From sequence record OK272489.1: a DNA stretch of 49,897 nucleotides. One strand, given 5' to 3'. How positions within the stretch are numbered: the first letter of the stretch is position 1; every line of letters begins with the position of its first letter. The notes beneath the pieces are model-generated. The model worked only from the letters and a program-made list of their open reading frames with translations, had not been told where the DNA came from and searched no databases. Shown piece after piece: positions 1,495 through 7,995 of this stretch. The stretch comes from Escherichia phage JLBYU19. A program made the position numbers and the translations under genes.

Positions 1495-1550
1495 AGTTTA
1501 TTGTAATGAGTCTATTATATACTCCAAATGGCATTTTTTAAAGGTTTAAG

Positions 1551-3548
1551 ATGATTCCAAATATCGAAAAACAAATATCAGCGTTAGGCGAGGCAGTAAT
1601 AAAAAGCATCCAAGAGCGATTCACGGTTGGCAATATAGTGCCTTATCCTTATCAGTGCGTTGCGTATGCCGAGATCGCAAAGCGCATGAAAAACTATGAG
1701 CATCCTTTCTTCGTTAAGGCTTCTGTGTCGGCTGGCAAAACTTTGATGTTTGCGATGGTTGCGGCGCAATGCCGCAAGATGGGATTGAAAATGATGGTCC
1801 TTGCTCGCCAGGCTGAAATTGTTGATCAGGATTCAGAAGAGATCAGCAATCTTGGCGTGCCAAACTCAATCTATTGCGCCGGACTGAAAACAAAAAGCGC
1901 ATACTTTCCGATCGTAGTCGGTTCTGAGGGCACTGTAGTAAACGGATTGTTTAAGTCGTTAGGTGATTATGTTCCGCACGTTATCGGTATTGATGAATGT
2001 CACCAGGTGGATTGGGAGGATCTCGCTGATGCGATAGAAAATAATGAATCTTACCAGCAGATGACCACTAAGAAGGATTTACCTGTACTGATTGGAGAAG
2101 AACAGCAATTTGATTCCAATGGCGATCCAATGTTCGGAACAGGGCGCACACAGTACACCGTAATAATCATGGAAATGATGCGCAGGTGTCGCGAGGCATA
2201 CGGGCACGAATTGCGAATATTCGGTATGACTGGATCTGAGTTTCGCGGCGTGGTTCCAATACTGGTTGAAGATAAGAACAAAAAGGGATTCTGGCGTGAG
2301 CAGGTGACTAACATAGACACAAACTACTTAATCAAATTTGGTTCTGTAGTGCCAACAAATTTCGGCGACGTAGGCGACCTGGGGTATGACCTTTCAGAGT
2401 TCGAAGCCAGTAGCGAGGATGGCGTTTCAGACTTTGACGCTAAAACATTGCGCAAGATGGAAGAAAAGATCCATCAAGACGCAACAATGACACAGAAAAT
2501 CATGGCTAAAGTCCATGAGATATGCAAAGACAGGAACGGAGTTTTAGTTACATGCGCAGGGGAAAGACACTGCAAGGAGGCCGCCGCCGCACTTCCGCCA
2601 GGCGTTGAATACAGGATCATAACTGGCAAGACTGGAGACAATCAGCGTAAAGAGTGGCTGAGGGAGGCATACGAGGGAAAAGTAAAATACATCTTCCAGG
2701 TACAGGCGCTTACCACTGGCGTTAACGTTCCGTTTTGGGATACTTCTGTAATACTGAGAAAGATAGGTTCTCTAACATTGCTTATCCAGCTTTTGGGGCG
2801 CGGTATGCGACTGCTTAAGCAATGGCACATTGAGCAGGGATTCAAGAAAAAAGATCATCTTGTATTGGATTTTGCCGGTACTATGGATGAGTTAGGGGAT
2901 TTGTATTTCGATCCAATCCTTGAGCAAGCGCAATTCCAAAAGAGATTTACAAACGGGAAAGAGCCTAAGACTTGTCCGATATGTGGAACGCTAAACAGCT
3001 TTTACGCTCGCCGATGTATGCACGTAGACGATAACGGGAAGAGATGCGAGCATTTTTGGACTTACAGAATTTGCGAGGACCAGGTAGATCCGAGAACGAA
3101 AAAGATAATCAAGCGCGGTTGCGGAACAAAAAACGACGTAGTGGCGAGAGTATGCCGTTGTTGCGATATTTCTCTTGTCGATCCTAACGAGAAGTTAAGC
3201 GGCAAGCACTACACCAAAAACGATTGGTGCAACGTTAAATCTTTCCGCGTTGATATGACGAAAAACCAGAAAGGAATTGTTTTTTGCTATGAGCTTGAGG
3301 CCAACGGCGACACATTCAAGGCATACGAAAGATTTTTCCCTGAGTCAGAAAGCAACATTTGCCGGACGATATGGAGAAAAATAGCATTGCAGCACATACC
3401 GGATCGCAAGGTTGCTGGTATGGTGGCGAGCTATAGAAATGCGCGTAAAATAATGTCATACGCTCATCACATCATGCCTCCTGTACGCGTAACGCATCGC
3501 AAAAACGGCAAAGGTGAGGATAACATTGCAAAACGGGAGTTTGTTTAA
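1551..3548 (+). CDS. SF2 DNA helicase (DEAD/DEAH-box) with C-terminal zinc-ribbon region
   Basis: 665 aa; Walker A-like SVSAGKT, motif II GIDECHQV, several CxxC pairs in C-terminal third. Confidence 0.85.
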   Translation: MIPNIEKQISALGEAVIKSIQERFTVGNIVPYPYQCVAYAEIAKRMKNYEHPFFVKASVSAGKTLMFAMVAAQCRKMGLKMMVLARQAEIVDQDSEEISNLGVPNSIYCAGLKTKSAYFPIVVGSEGTVVNGLFKSLGDYVPHVIGIDECHQVDWEDLADAIENNESYQQMTTKKDLPVLIGEEQQFDSNGDPMFGTGRTQYTVIIMEMMRRCREAYGHELRIFGMTGSEFRGVVPILVEDKNKKGFWREQVTNIDTNYLIKFGSVVPTNFGDVGDLGYDLSEFEASSEDGVSDFDAKTLRKMEEKIHQDATMTQKIMAKVHEICKDRNGVLVTCAGERHCKEAAAALPPGVEYRIITGKTGDNQRKEWLREAYEGKVKYIFQVQALTTGVNVPFWDTSVILRKIGSLTLLIQLLGRGMRLLKQWHIEQGFKKKDHLVLDFAGTMDELGDLYFDPILEQAQFQKRFTNGKEPKTCPICGTLNSFYARRCMHVDDNGKRCEHFWTYRICEDQVDPRTKKIIKRGCGTKNDVVARVCRCCDISLVDPNEKLSGKHYTKNDWCNVKSFRVDMTKNQKGIVFCYELEANGDTFKAYERFFPESESNICRTIWRKIALQHIPDRKVAGMVASYRNARKIMSYAHHIMPPVRVTHRKNGKGEDNIAKREFV

Positions 3549-5110: not shown

Positions 5111-5290
5111 ATGGTGGTATTCGATAAACGCGCTTTTAACCTTGCTCAAGAAGTAGCAAAAGGTTCAGTGGATGGCGGTTCAAAGGAAGGATTCCAGTTT
5201 GATTGGGAGATCGCAATGTTTTTACTGAAAGTTGCATACGGTCACGCACCAATTGAACAAGCGGAGGCATATTATAAGCATGAAGGTTGA
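5111..5290 (+). CDS. hypothetical small protein (not in ORF track)
   Basis: 59 uninterrupted codons; GAGGA RBS 8 nt upstream; downstream of junction-element promoter at 5034. Confidence 0.4.
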   Translation: MVVFDKRAFNLAQEVAKGSVDGGSKEGFQFDWEIAMFLLKVAYGHAPIEQAEAYYKHEG

Positions 5291-5522
5291 GCAAGGAAGA
5301 GATGCGGTATGGAATCACGCTAAAGAATGCGGTATTGCCGACGATATAAAGAAGATCGCGCAATACTTTGATATTGCAGATGTGAGCATAATTAGCGGCG
5401 ACAAGATGACTTTCCTCAAGGAAAGGCCGCGAAAAATGGTAAGAGTTCCAGCAGTTCCAACAAAAATTGATTTCAAAGAGGCAATGGCTAAAATCCGAGA
5501 GCCTCGCAAATATTATAAATGA
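5280..5522 (+). CDS. hypothetical protein
   Basis: 80 aa from ATG 5280 (GGAGG 11 nt upstream); overlaps preceding small ORF by 11 nt. Confidence 0.45.
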   Translation: MKVEQGRDAVWNHAKECGIADDIKKIAQYFDIADVSIISGDKMTFLKERPRKMVRVPAVPTKIDFKEAMAKIREPRKYYK

Positions 5523-5616
5523 GGATAGTTATCATGTGGCGCTTGTTTGTTCTACCGTTACCCGTTATCATCGCTGTTACAGTTATGTACCATATAGTGA
5601 TGAGATAGGTAGCAGA

Positions 5617-6732
5617 ATGAAAAATGTAAAAATTACAGATGAGCAATTCAAGATCGAACGGGCGGCAGGTAAGACATATAAACAGATCGCTCAAGAGTAC
5701 GGAATGAATGTGAGAAGCGTCGAGCGTCGCGCGGCGCGTCTTGCAAAGCAAGGACAGCTATCGACCATCGGAGCGCCTGGTTTTGGTGTTCATGGTGAGT
5801 CAGTAATGACTGACAAAGAAGGAAATATAATCCTCAAGTGGACCAAAACCAGCAAGGATAAAGAGCAATTAGAGGCATTGATGCGCGCAGCTATGGAGGC
5901 GTTTAGCGAGGAAGTGCCGCGATTAGATCCAGTTCCATTGCAGGAGCGTAATTATAATGAAACGCTTTCATTGTATCCGATCTTTGACATGCACTTAGGC
6001 GCTATGGCCCATAAGCACGAATGCGGCGAAAATTGGGATACTGCGACGGCAGAGCGCGTTATGAATAACTTTATCGACTATGCTTTGATGTGCGCGCCGG
6101 ACAGCGAAAAGGCTGTTATCCTGATTGGTGGCGATATGCTTCATAGCGATGGCCTGGAGGCTGTGACACCTGCAAGCGGTCACGTACTTGATCAAGATAG
6201 CCGATATGCAAAATTGGTTTACGTTGCAATCCGTGCAATGCGTCGCGCAATTAATAAAATGCTGTTAAAGCATAAACATGTTGAGGTGCAGATCGTAGAG
6301 GGGAATCACGACCAATCAGGAATGATTTGGCTACGCGCAGCGATGGCGGCAGCATATGAGAACGAGCCGCGCGTTTACGTTGATGTTTCTCCTCGCGTTG
6401 TTCACCACACGCAATACGGAAAAACTTTCCTTGCGTACCATCACGGGCACACAGTGCGTAAACCGGAGACTTTGCTAATGATGTGCGCGTCAGATTGGCG
6501 GGAGGACTTCGGGAACTCAAAAACGATGTATGCGCACGTAGGGCACTGGCATCACCAGACCGTAACAGAAACGTCGCTTGGCATCGTGGAGGTGCATAGC
6601 ACCCTGGCGGCAAAAGACGCATACGCCGCGCGAGGTGGCTGGAGATCTCGACGCCGTGCGGCGGTTATCATTTACGACAAAGAGCATGGAGAGGTCGGGC
6701 GATTTGTCCACTATCCAGAAATGATGAATTGA
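5617..6732 (+). CDS. metallophosphoesterase (calcineurin-like) with N-terminal HTH-like segment
   Basis: 371 aa from ATG 5617; motifs DMH, GGDMLHSDG, GNHD, HHGH, GHWHH; N-terminal TYKQIAQEYGMNVRSVERRAARL. Confidence 0.7.
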   Translation: MKNVKITDEQFKIERAAGKTYKQIAQEYGMNVRSVERRAARLAKQGQLSTIGAPGFGVHGESVMTDKEGNIILKWTKTSKDKEQLEALMRAAMEAFSEEVPRLDPVPLQERNYNETLSLYPIFDMHLGAMAHKHECGENWDTATAERVMNNFIDYALMCAPDSEKAVILIGGDMLHSDGLEAVTPASGHVLDQDSRYAKLVYVAIRAMRRAINKMLLKHKHVEVQIVEGNHDQSGMIWLRAAMAAAYENEPRVYVDVSPRVVHHTQYGKTFLAYHHGHTVRKPETLLMMCASDWREDFGNSKTMYAHVGHWHHQTVTETSLGIVEVHSTLAAKDAYAARGGWRSRRRAAVIIYDKEHGEVGRFVHYPEMMN

Positions 6733-6777
6733 TGAATTTTTATTTAAATCAATGACAAATTAAATCAAAAACTTGCA

Positions 6778-6808
6778 AAGGGGCGGCGTTTGTCGCCTCT
6801 TTTTTTTG
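6778..6808 (+). terminator. intrinsic terminator after phosphoesterase gene
   Basis: GC-rich imperfect hairpin GGGGCGGCG/CGCCTC followed by T8. Confidence 0.5.
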
Positions 6809-6878
6809 TTTAATTTTTTTACCATGTGCGTTTATCATGCGGTCAATATATTGACTTTAATTAATATGGAGAATAAAA

Positions 6879-7094
6879 ATGAAAGATTTTATTAACGCAG
6901 CTACCGCCGGATCTGGCGGTTCATCTATCGCAAGCGCCGCTACAGGGCAGTTAACCATTGCTATTGCCAGTTTTATTTTAATGGCTGCATTCGGTGCGTG
7001 GGGCGCTTACCTTCGCTGGCGTGATAGTAAAAAATTCCACGAGGCGATCGAAAAAGGTGATATTCAAAAAGCTATTGAGATCAGGGGCAAGTAA
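6879..7094 (+). CDS. holin (single TMD, pinholin-like)
   Basis: 71 aa; one hydrophobic helix [19 protein letters not shown], charged C-terminus; immediately precedes endolysin. Confidence 0.6.
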
Positions 7095-7585
7095 TGAGCA
7101 TAAAGAACAGGGTAGCGGCTGCGGCCTTTGGCGTTGCGGTTGCCTTGACTTCTCCACTTCTTGAAGAGATCGAAGGGGTAAGATACAAGCCATACAAAGA
7201 TATTGCGGGGGTATGGACGGTTTGCGCAGGAATCACCGGACCAGATGTTATCCTGGGGAAAACGTACACTAAAAAAGAGTGTGATGCTTTGTTGGCTAAA
7301 CATATCCAGGTTGCTAAAAAAGAAGTTGACAAGCAGGTTAAGGTTGACATTCCTGATAGTATGCGTGCAGCAATGTACTCATTCACTTACAATGCAGGTG
7401 TGGGAGCTTTCAGAAATTCAACAATGCTGAAACTCATCAACCAGGGGAAATTAAACGAGGCTTGCGATCAGCTTTATCGTTGGACGTATTACCATAACCC
7501 CAAAACAGGAAAGCGCGAGAAGTCTAAAGGCTTGCTTAACAGGCGCAAGGTCGAATACAAATATTGCACAATGGATCTTAAATGA
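7094..7585 (+). CDS. endolysin (lysozyme fold) with SAR-like N-terminus
   Basis: 163 aa; [10 protein letters not shown]...CAGIT lysozyme catalytic region; Gly/Ala-rich weakly hydrophobic N-terminus [14 protein letters not shown]; start overlaps holin stop. Confidence 0.75.
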
Positions 7586-7977
7586 TGAAGAAATTTTTAC
7601 TTACACCAATCGCAATGGCGGTGATCTTGTCTGGATGTTCAAGCGTTACGCCACTGACCGGATTAATCGGCAGTAAGCCGGAAATCACAGCGCAGGCTGG
7701 CGCGGAGAACGTGAAGCAGACAGTTGGCATTACAGCAAGGCAGGACGCCAGCACAAAACAGGAAACCACAATAAAGGAATCTGCGGTTGACAAGGTGGAC
7801 ACGTCCAGCAAGAAGGATTTCACAACATCAACCATTCAGGCCAATACCATCAAGGCAGACAAAATTCAGGTCGTGCAGGGTAATAACGGCAGATGGTACG
7901 ATCCAGTAATCATATGCGTGGTTGTGTTTCTTGTGCTGATTTGTCTTTACTGGATAGAAAAGAAAAAGGAGGCTTAA
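7582..7977 (+). CDS. unimolecular spanin (u-spanin)
   Basis: 131 aa; N-terminal lipoprotein signal with lipobox LSGC and C-terminal [19 protein letters not shown]; last gene of lysis cassette. Confidence 0.7.
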
Positions 7978-7995
7978 CGCCTCCTTTATTTTTAT
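7967..7995. terminator. bidirectional intrinsic terminator between convergent lysis and early genes
   Basis: AGGAGGC-ttaac-GCCTCCT hairpin flanked by A/T tracts on both sides. Confidence 0.6.

Follow-up and report, generated by a model that had tools for sequence, protein, structure and literature searches.

The DNA analysed here, a stretch of 49,897 nucleotides from Escherichia phage JLBYU19 (OK272489.1; "the window"), carries a three-gene lysis cassette at positions 6879-7977 that is most likely the late lysis module of a T1-like siphophage (Drexlerviridae, Warwickvirus) operating by the holin / SAR-endolysin / u-spanin route; we assign this reading a probability of about 0.9. An earlier note, made from the letters of the sequence, had described a lysis cassette of a small holin, a SAR-type endolysin, and a unimolecular spanin, and family matches, sequence motifs, orthology to the genes of phages T1 and TLS, and the literature all agree with this description. 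The cassette as such is already known, as it is annotated in near-identical GenBank genomes and has been analysed in the literature on spanins and on Drexlerviridae. The features of the region are listed in Table 1.

Table 1. Genes and transcription and translation signals of the lysis region (positions in the window).
Feature	Position	Strand	Remarks
Intrinsic terminator at the end of the upstream replication/repair operon	6777..6802	+	11-bp stem (6 G-C pairs) and a T run after it
Shine-Dalgarno sequence GGAG	6868..6871	+	7 nt 5' of the holin ATG; read directly from the sequence
Holin	6879..7094	+	71 aa; orthologue of T1 gp13
SAR-type endolysin	7094..7585	+	163 aa; GH24 T4-lysozyme-like muramidase; orthologue of T1 gp12
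Unimolecular spanin	7582..7977	+	131 aa; orthologue of T1 gp11; alternative start ATG at 7585
Bidirectional intrinsic terminator	7965..7987	both	9-bp stem, T runs on both strands

The cassette consists of three plus-strand ORFs whose coordinates are exactly those of the earlier note. The stop and start codons of neighboring genes overlap, as TAATG at the holin/endolysin junction and as ATGA at the endolysin/spanin junction. On the basis of their PHROG and Pfam matches, the three ORFs are real genes and not chance ORFs. The other frames and the minus strand were inspected for hidden genes, which could have encoded an antiholin or, embedded in another gene, an o-spanin, and none of the six ORFs tested had a credible PHROG match. 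The best score among them (E=0.0019), from an ORF antisense to the endolysin gene, was taken as spurious. The topology given below for the three proteins was assigned from hydropathy and motif patterns, from homology, and from two AlphaFold2 models of low depth, those of the holin and of the spanin, which were both run from single sequences.

The source phage is T1-like and belongs to the genus Warwickvirus (Drexlerviridae, Tempevirinae). The 1.4-kb cassette region is 99.0% identical at the DNA level to that of Escherichia phage JLBYU10, and other T1-like coliphages among the matches listed reach 97.8-98.9%, with 59 further records at 95-99%. At the same coordinates, the JLBYU10 record names a "putative holin", a "putative endolysin", and a "putative unimolecular spanin". 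The three proteins share 56%, 66%, and 46% of their amino acids with T1 gp13, gp12, and gp11, respectively, and 45%, 72%, and 52% with HolN, LysN, and RzlA of TLS, which are labeled "pinholin class 2", "SAR endolysin", and "u-spanin" in the TLS record. The T1 module has likewise been described as consisting of a pinholin, a SAR endolysin, and a u-spanin (PMC13164509). The cassettes of T1, TLS, and JLBYU10 resemble that of the window in the three genes, their order, and the overlapping junctions, and also in their surroundings, with an exonuclease gene upstream, a converging operon downstream, and a terminator that covers the spanin stop codon. T1 differs in having an HNH endonuclease gene, ST15, together with ST14 between the exonuclease and the holin; ST14 has been reported to encode a standalone SH3 protein (PMC13164509).

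Among the three gene products, the holin is the one whose mode of action leaves most room for alternatives. Over its full length it matches the holin family phrog_2877 (E=2.9e-32), and the holin families of Pfam and NCBIfam gave no match to it. It contains one strongly hydrophobic stretch at residues 25-45 (nt 6951-7013; mean Kyte-Doolittle hydropathy 1.84, summed Hessa dG about 0.3 kcal/mol) and ends with a charged C-terminal tail. Ahead of the transmembrane domain (TMD) lies a segment of 17 residues (aa 7-23, nt 6897-6947) that is composed to 94% of Gly, Ala, Ser, and Thr. The single-sequence AlphaFold2 model, which is of moderate confidence, shows one continuous helix that spans residues 15-58, with pLDDT values of 81-90 at residues 21-50.

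The earlier note had called this protein a pinholin-like holin with a single TMD, an assignment drawn from its pairing with a SAR endolysin rather than from homology or a demonstrated function. The one strong stretch at residues 25-45 and the single predicted helix speak for one TMD. Annotators of the T1 and TLS holins disagree on this point: one TMD is given both in the T1 record ("single transmembrane domain") and in the TLS record ("1 TMD predicted using DeepTMHMM"), but the TLS holin was proposed to be a class II holin with "two putative transmembrane segments" (PMC11447400). The proposal of two TMDs for the TLS holin can be understood because segment 7-23 is as hydrophobic as TMD1 of the pinholin S21 of phage 21, with 0.44 versus 0.41 kcal/mol per residue and Kyte-Doolittle values of 0.54 versus 0.45. 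However, only Gly-Gln separates segment 7-23 from the TMD, whereas the corresponding loop of S21 comprises 7 residues (DQVSPSQ).

As to the term "pinholin-like", the SAR endolysin partner and the length of 71 aa agree with it, but a homology to S21 does not: in a profile-profile comparison by hhalign, based on an alignment of Drexlerviridae holins, the probability of a relationship to S21 and to the Slopekvirinae pinholins was 6%, i.e., no homology was detectable. A MAFFT co-alignment of the holin with S21 opens a gap of 12 columns where S21 has its loop, but as the profile-profile comparison found no homology, this alignment is no evidence of common descent. The S21 68 pinholin, a class II holin with two TMDs of which TMD1 is a SAR domain, shares with the window holin its size (71 aa for S21 71), the SAR endolysin partner, the charged C-terminal tail, and a weakly hydrophobic segment rich in Gly, Ala, Ser, and Thr in front of a strong TMD. 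In contrast, the window holin lacks homology to S21 as well as the loop and the dual-start motif, and it is modeled as a single helix. A search for a second in-frame start near the holin ATG found none, and there is therefore no obvious dual-start antiholin; the TLS holin gene differs in this respect, as it has a second in-frame Met near its start. From this comparison, we infer that the window holin is a member of the T1 holin family that is pinholin-like only by its size and its partnership with a SAR endolysin.

The same cassette could also function with a canonical, large-hole holin, which we regard as unlikely but as having a real chance of being correct. Such a holin would only time the depolarisation, and its holes could also let cytoplasmic proteins pass. 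Phage P1 pairs a SAR endolysin with a conventional holin, and SAR endolysins, as in the P1 Lyz system, need depolarisation alone. A canonical holin would fit the absence of any sequence relation to S21 and of any pinholin match in Pfam or NCBIfam, and it would fit the one strong TMD and the continuous helix, which are unlike the two-TMD design of S21. Moreover, u-spanins work with either type of holin-endolysin pair (Kongari et al., PMC6139136). Against this stand the very small size of the protein, the agreement of segment 7-23 with the SAR-like TMD1 of S21 in hydrophobicity per residue, and the judgement of specialist curators, who label the T1 and TLS holins as pinholins (PMC6139136, PMC11447400, PMC13164509, and the TLS record). 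The overlap of the holin stop codon with the start codon of the SAR-type endolysin gene reflects the genetic pairing of the two.

A further idea, which we consider distinctly doubtful and mention as a tentative one, is that the holins of phrog_2877 could represent an independent, "loop-less" or class III-like type of pinholin, consisting of a single helix that evolved apart from S21, in which segment 7-23 would have a regulatory role like that of the SAR-TMD1 of S21. In one study, the T1 holin produced alone was barely toxic (PMC10954549). This is unlike what would be expected of a strongly triggering holin, and low expression is one possible explanation. If the idea of a loop-less pinholin were true, the low toxicity of the T1 holin in that study (PMC10954549) would mean either that the holin causes depolarisation only or that it needs partner proteins. 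Beyond this toxicity result (PMC10954549), we found no experiments on T1 gp13 in the literature searched.

The endolysin matches phrog_7 (E=2.7e-55) and the Pfam family PF00959, Phage_lysozyme (E=3.6e-39). In full agreement with the Gly/Ala-rich, weakly hydrophobic N-terminus claimed for it before, residues 7-23 (nt 7112-7162) form an uncharged stretch of 17 residues with 53% Gly, Ala, Ser, and Thr and a Kyte-Doolittle value of 2.0, flanked by K4 and R6 on one side and by E24/E25 on the other. Its summed Hessa dG is +2.1 kcal/mol, which is similar to the value for the SAR domain of the phage 21 lysozyme R21 (+0.8 kcal/mol) and indicates a much weaker hydrophobicity than that of the TMD of the window spanin (-3.0 kcal/mol). 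By its SAR-like composition, the segment is a putative SAR domain. Counting somewhat against this assignment, the uncharged stretch has only 17 residues, includes a proline, and is 6 residues nearer to the catalytic Glu than its counterpart in R21.

A search of solved structures aligned residues 2-159 of the endolysin with the full-length R21 lysozyme (3HDE, E=4.8e-47), and this alignment spans the N-terminal hydrophobic segment, which thus faces the R21 SAR domain. Further matches were RrrD of E. coli DLP12 (4ZPU) and the N-terminally truncated R21 (3HDF). Over the whole protein, the identity to R21 is 53%. The catalytic triad E27/D36/T42 (nt 7172-7219) corresponds to E35/D44/T50 of R21 in the alignment and is invariant in 9 sequences, and each of the 9 endolysin homologues aligned has retained a hydrophobic segment at the N-terminus. 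R21 is named a SAR endolysin in the phage 21 record and is the archetypal one. Both enzymes share the Gly/Ala-rich hydrophobic N-terminal segment and the Glu-8-Asp-5-Thr spacing of the triad. They differ in that the linker from the SAR segment to the catalytic Glu is 6 residues shorter in the window endolysin, which also has a shorter uncharged N-terminal stretch (17 residues, versus about 19 in R21) and a 6-residue insertion close to its C-terminus. The partner proteins differ as well, as R21 acts together with S21, a pinholin with two TMDs, and with an embedded spanin of two components. For R21, Sun et al. reportedly found in 2009 that the SAR domain, once released, becomes part of the refolded enzyme and moves the catalytic Glu into position, and plausibly, the same refolding logic applies to the window endolysin. 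Its orthologue T1 gp12 has been predicted to be a SAR endolysin (PMC11447400). E. coli cells that produced only the T1 endolysin were lysed within 2 h, but production of only the T7 endolysin, a cytoplasmic enzyme, had little effect (PMC10954549). Lysis by the T1 endolysin alone is as expected of a holin-independent, exported enzyme.

It is in principle conceivable, but in our view very improbable, that the N-terminus of the endolysin is a cleavable Sec signal peptide and that the enzyme is secreted as a soluble protein whose activity is controlled in another way. There is precedent for signal peptide-dependent secretion with another activity control in some endolysins of Gram-positive phages, and the N-terminus does have K4 and R6 in the position of an n-region, a short hydrophobic core, and, with A15-V16-A17, a sequence that resembles an AXA cleavage site. 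However, this sole AXA-like motif lies within the hydrophobic core as judged by manual inspection, and if the protein were cut behind A17, its h-region would be no longer than about 8-10 residues. Across the 9 homologues, no AXA motif is conserved. The SAR domain with which the segment aligns is uncleaved and present in the full-length R21 crystal (3HDE), and the orthologues have been curated as SAR endolysins (TLS record; PMC11447400). We therefore favor the assignment of a SAR-type endolysin.

The third protein was recognized over its full length as an Rz-like spanin (phrog_1804, E=4.1e-46), and the claim that it combines a lipoprotein signal with a C-terminal TMD in one polypeptide was borne out by its lipobox, its TMD, and its homology to T1 gp11. 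The lipobox, L16-S17-G18-C19 (nt 7627-7638), matches the PROSITE pattern PS51257 and is identical to the LSGC lipobox of T1 gp11. The residue at the +2 position is Ser20 and not Asp, in line with sorting to the outer membrane. The periplasmic domain comprises residues 20-107 and is followed by the TMD at residues 108-125 (nt 7903-7956; Kyte-Doolittle value 3.0), after which the sequence EKKKEA follows. Apart from the lipobox Cys19, the only cysteines are Cys112 and Cys121, both of which are located within the TMD, so that none is periplasmic, and the same absence of periplasmic cysteines has been reported for every one of 58 u-spanins (PMC6139136).

In an alignment of eight spanins from two families, which included proteins of Webervirus, Eclunavirus, and Braunvirinae phages and of two Autographiviridae (Slopekvirinae), G18-C19-S20 were invariant, the periplasmic core PxxxAQxGAENxK was conserved, and the C-terminal hydrophobic stretch was present in all eight sequences. 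The single-sequence AlphaFold2 model contains confident helices only at residues 8-19, which correspond to the signal peptide, and at residues 108-130, which correspond to the TMD (pLDDT about 85); residues 27-80 have pLDDT values below 50 and no secondary structure. For T1 gp11, a beta-rich periplasmic domain rather than a coiled-coil has been predicted (PMC6139136). T1 gp11 is the prototype of the u-spanins, and T1 gene 11 complements an RzRz1 defect of phage lambda (PMC6139136). Its family is the largest of the u-spanin families, and with two exceptions, its members come from cassettes that also encode a pinholin and a SAR endolysin (PMC6139136).

The window spanin would do the same job as Rz/Rz1 of lambda and is encoded at the same place, as the last gene of the cassette, and both systems provide an outer-membrane lipoprotein anchor and an inner-membrane TMD anchor. 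In contrast to the two proteins Rz and Rz1, the window spanin is a single polypeptide, and its gene has no second gene embedded in it. It shows no sequence similarity to Rz/Rz1 and has no cysteines in the periplasm. That the third gene encodes a Cor-like superinfection-exclusion protein or another accessory lipoprotein that merely adjoins the lysis genes is extremely improbable, as the weak secondary PHROG match to Cor (phrog_1119, E=1.1e-05, residues 2-81) and the plain name "lipoprotein" in several GenBank records of the orthologue are opposed by the full-length best match to the Rz-like spanin family, by the identity to T1 gp11, the complementing protein (PMC6139136), by the conserved C-terminal TMD, which Cor-type lipoproteins lack, and by the overlap of the spanin start codon with the endolysin stop codon.

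Taken as a holin / SAR-endolysin / u-spanin system, the cassette would act as follows. The host Sec system would export the endolysin, whose weakly hydrophobic SAR segment would keep it anchored in the inner membrane, and the anchored enzyme would be restrained in its activity. The u-spanin would likewise be exported, lipidated at Cys19, and, with Ser at +2, sorted to the outer membrane, while its C-terminal TMD would remain in the inner membrane, so that a single polypeptide would cross the periplasm through the murein mesh. Meanwhile, the 71-aa holin would build up in the inner membrane until its programmed triggering would collapse the proton-motive force. The SAR segment would then exit the bilayer, and the enzyme would refold to its active form and degrade the peptidoglycan. 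With the loss of murein, the spanin would be freed to act on the outer membrane and disrupt it, probably through a fusion of the two membranes. For the window alleles, we infer these steps, like the small-hole nature of the holin, from comparison with the related systems; the identities of the three genes, their orthology, their motifs, and the conservation of these motifs are observed directly in the cassette.

The placement of the cassette, which the earlier note had considered unusual, turned out to be the norm for Drexlerviridae. In lambda, the lysis genes open the late operon, and the T1-like placement is unusual only relative to lambda. Upstream of the window cassette lies the gene of a DNA repair exonuclease (phrog_704, E=9e-149), and downstream, on the minus strand, are small genes of unknown function and a helicase gene (phrog_2373). 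In the T1 record, the order is ST16 (DNA repair exonuclease), ST13 (holin), ST12 (endolysin), and ST11 (Rz-like spanin), with a terminator over the end of gene 11 and then a converging operon with ST10 and the helicase gene ST9. The order exonuclease-holin-endolysin-spanin is found in the records of TLS, KpKT21phi1, Ec_L1, and DTL as well as in that of T1, Webervirus, Eclunavirus, and Braunvirinae phages have the cassette at the same position, and 508 of 522 Drexlerviridae show this order (PMC13164509). In Tunavirinae, an extra standalone SH3 gene is often found between the exonuclease and the holin genes, and T1 has the HNH gene there in addition.

Terminators delimit the transcription unit of the cassette at both ends. 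The upstream terminator lies in the 146-bp spacer between the exonuclease and holin genes and ends 76 bases 5' of the holin start; its RNA fold has an energy of -16.6 kcal/mol (z = -4.1 relative to shuffled sequence). The downstream terminator serves both the cassette and the minus-strand operon that converges on it, carries the spanin stop codon in its loop, and has fold energies of -16.4 and -15.0 kcal/mol (z = -3.75 and -3.64 relative to shuffled sequence). In a search of the 146-bp spacer for sigma-70 promoters, consensus-like matches were no more common than in shuffled sequence. The sole consensus-like match, at 6851-6880, cannot serve the holin ribosome-binding site because its -10 element overlies the start codon, and no promoter is assigned to the cassette here.

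In practical terms, the value of these results lies in the correct annotation of three genes in the window, and the cassette also served as a check that a reading of the bare sequence recognizes SAR domains, lipoboxes, and u-spanins. Whatever holds for the mechanism and the topology of the holin concerns the T1-type family as a whole and not the window in particular.

The coordinates of the window and of the near-identical phage JLBYU10 (50,987 bp) agree base for base in the 1.4-kb stretch that we compared. The ORF layout is in addition T1-like, with replication and repair genes followed by the lysis cassette, a group of small minus-strand genes with the helicase, and then larger plus-strand ORFs. 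On this basis, the window seems to represent almost the whole of a Warwickvirus genome. A search of the window (1-49897) for tRNA genes detected none.

Features discussed in the text; an empty cell means that no entry was given
Feature	Sequence	Coordinates	Strand	Details
Exonuclease, mechanical ORF	window	5467-6732		TTG start at 5467; 421 aa
Exonuclease-holin spacer	window	6733-6878		146 bp; terminator and AT-rich stretch
Antisense ORF	window	7081-7386	minus	101 aa; inside the endolysin gene
Region with a T1-type u-spanin homologue	Salmonella phage KKP 3828 (locus L008)	1498-2747		Autographiviridae, Slopekvirinae
Region with a T1-type u-spanin homologue	Klebsiella phage KpV41 (locus L009)	1504-2744		Autographiviridae, Slopekvirinae

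The DNA-repair exonuclease upstream of the cassette is annotated in JLBYU10 from 5536 (398 aa). This shorter start is more likely than that of the mechanical ORF, because the 421-aa version overlaps the small gene just before it (5280-5522 in JLBYU10). The spacer that follows contains no gene, whereas T1 carries the HNH endonuclease ST15 and ST14 at this position. Many members of the Tunavirinae, Braunvirinae, and Rogunavirinae have a standalone SH3 (DUF7244) gene between the exonuclease and the holin (PMC13164509), but the window phage, a member of the Tempevirinae, lacks this accessory gene of the lysis module.

Residues 7-23 of the holin (6897-6947) consist to 94% of Gly, Ala, Ser, and Thr, and are as weakly hydrophobic as the SAR-like TMD1 of the phage 21 pinholin S21. 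The segment directly adjoins the main TMD without a loop. In a MAFFT alignment, all Drexlerviridae holins showed a 12-column gap at the precise position of the loop in S21 and in the Slopekvirinae holins, although homology between the Drexlerviridae holins and either of these was undetectable.

The antisense ORF gave a weak PHROG match to phrog_22558 (unknown function; E=0.0019), which is probably a family assembled from wrongly predicted antisense ORFs in GH24 endolysin genes and not a real gene. At the endolysin/spanin junction, the motif ATGATGA (7582-7588) offers two candidate spanin starts, 7582 and 7585, the latter being the one annotated in JLBYU10. The window endolysin ends with a tandem TGATGA stop. 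The JLBYU10 endolysin is annotated at 7094-7588 and thus one codon longer, implying a substitution in the first stop of that phage.

The proteins of KKP 3828 and KpV41 are clear homologues of the T1-type u-spanin, with about 40% identity and a shared GCS lipobox. Both phages are podophages of a different family from the window phage. Their gene order is spanin-holin-endolysin rather than holin-endolysin-spanin, and their holin is of another type, longer and with two segments. Their endolysin likewise has a hydrophobic N-terminus, but its identity is just 26-27%. Evidently, the spanin gene has moved between unrelated lysis cassettes.
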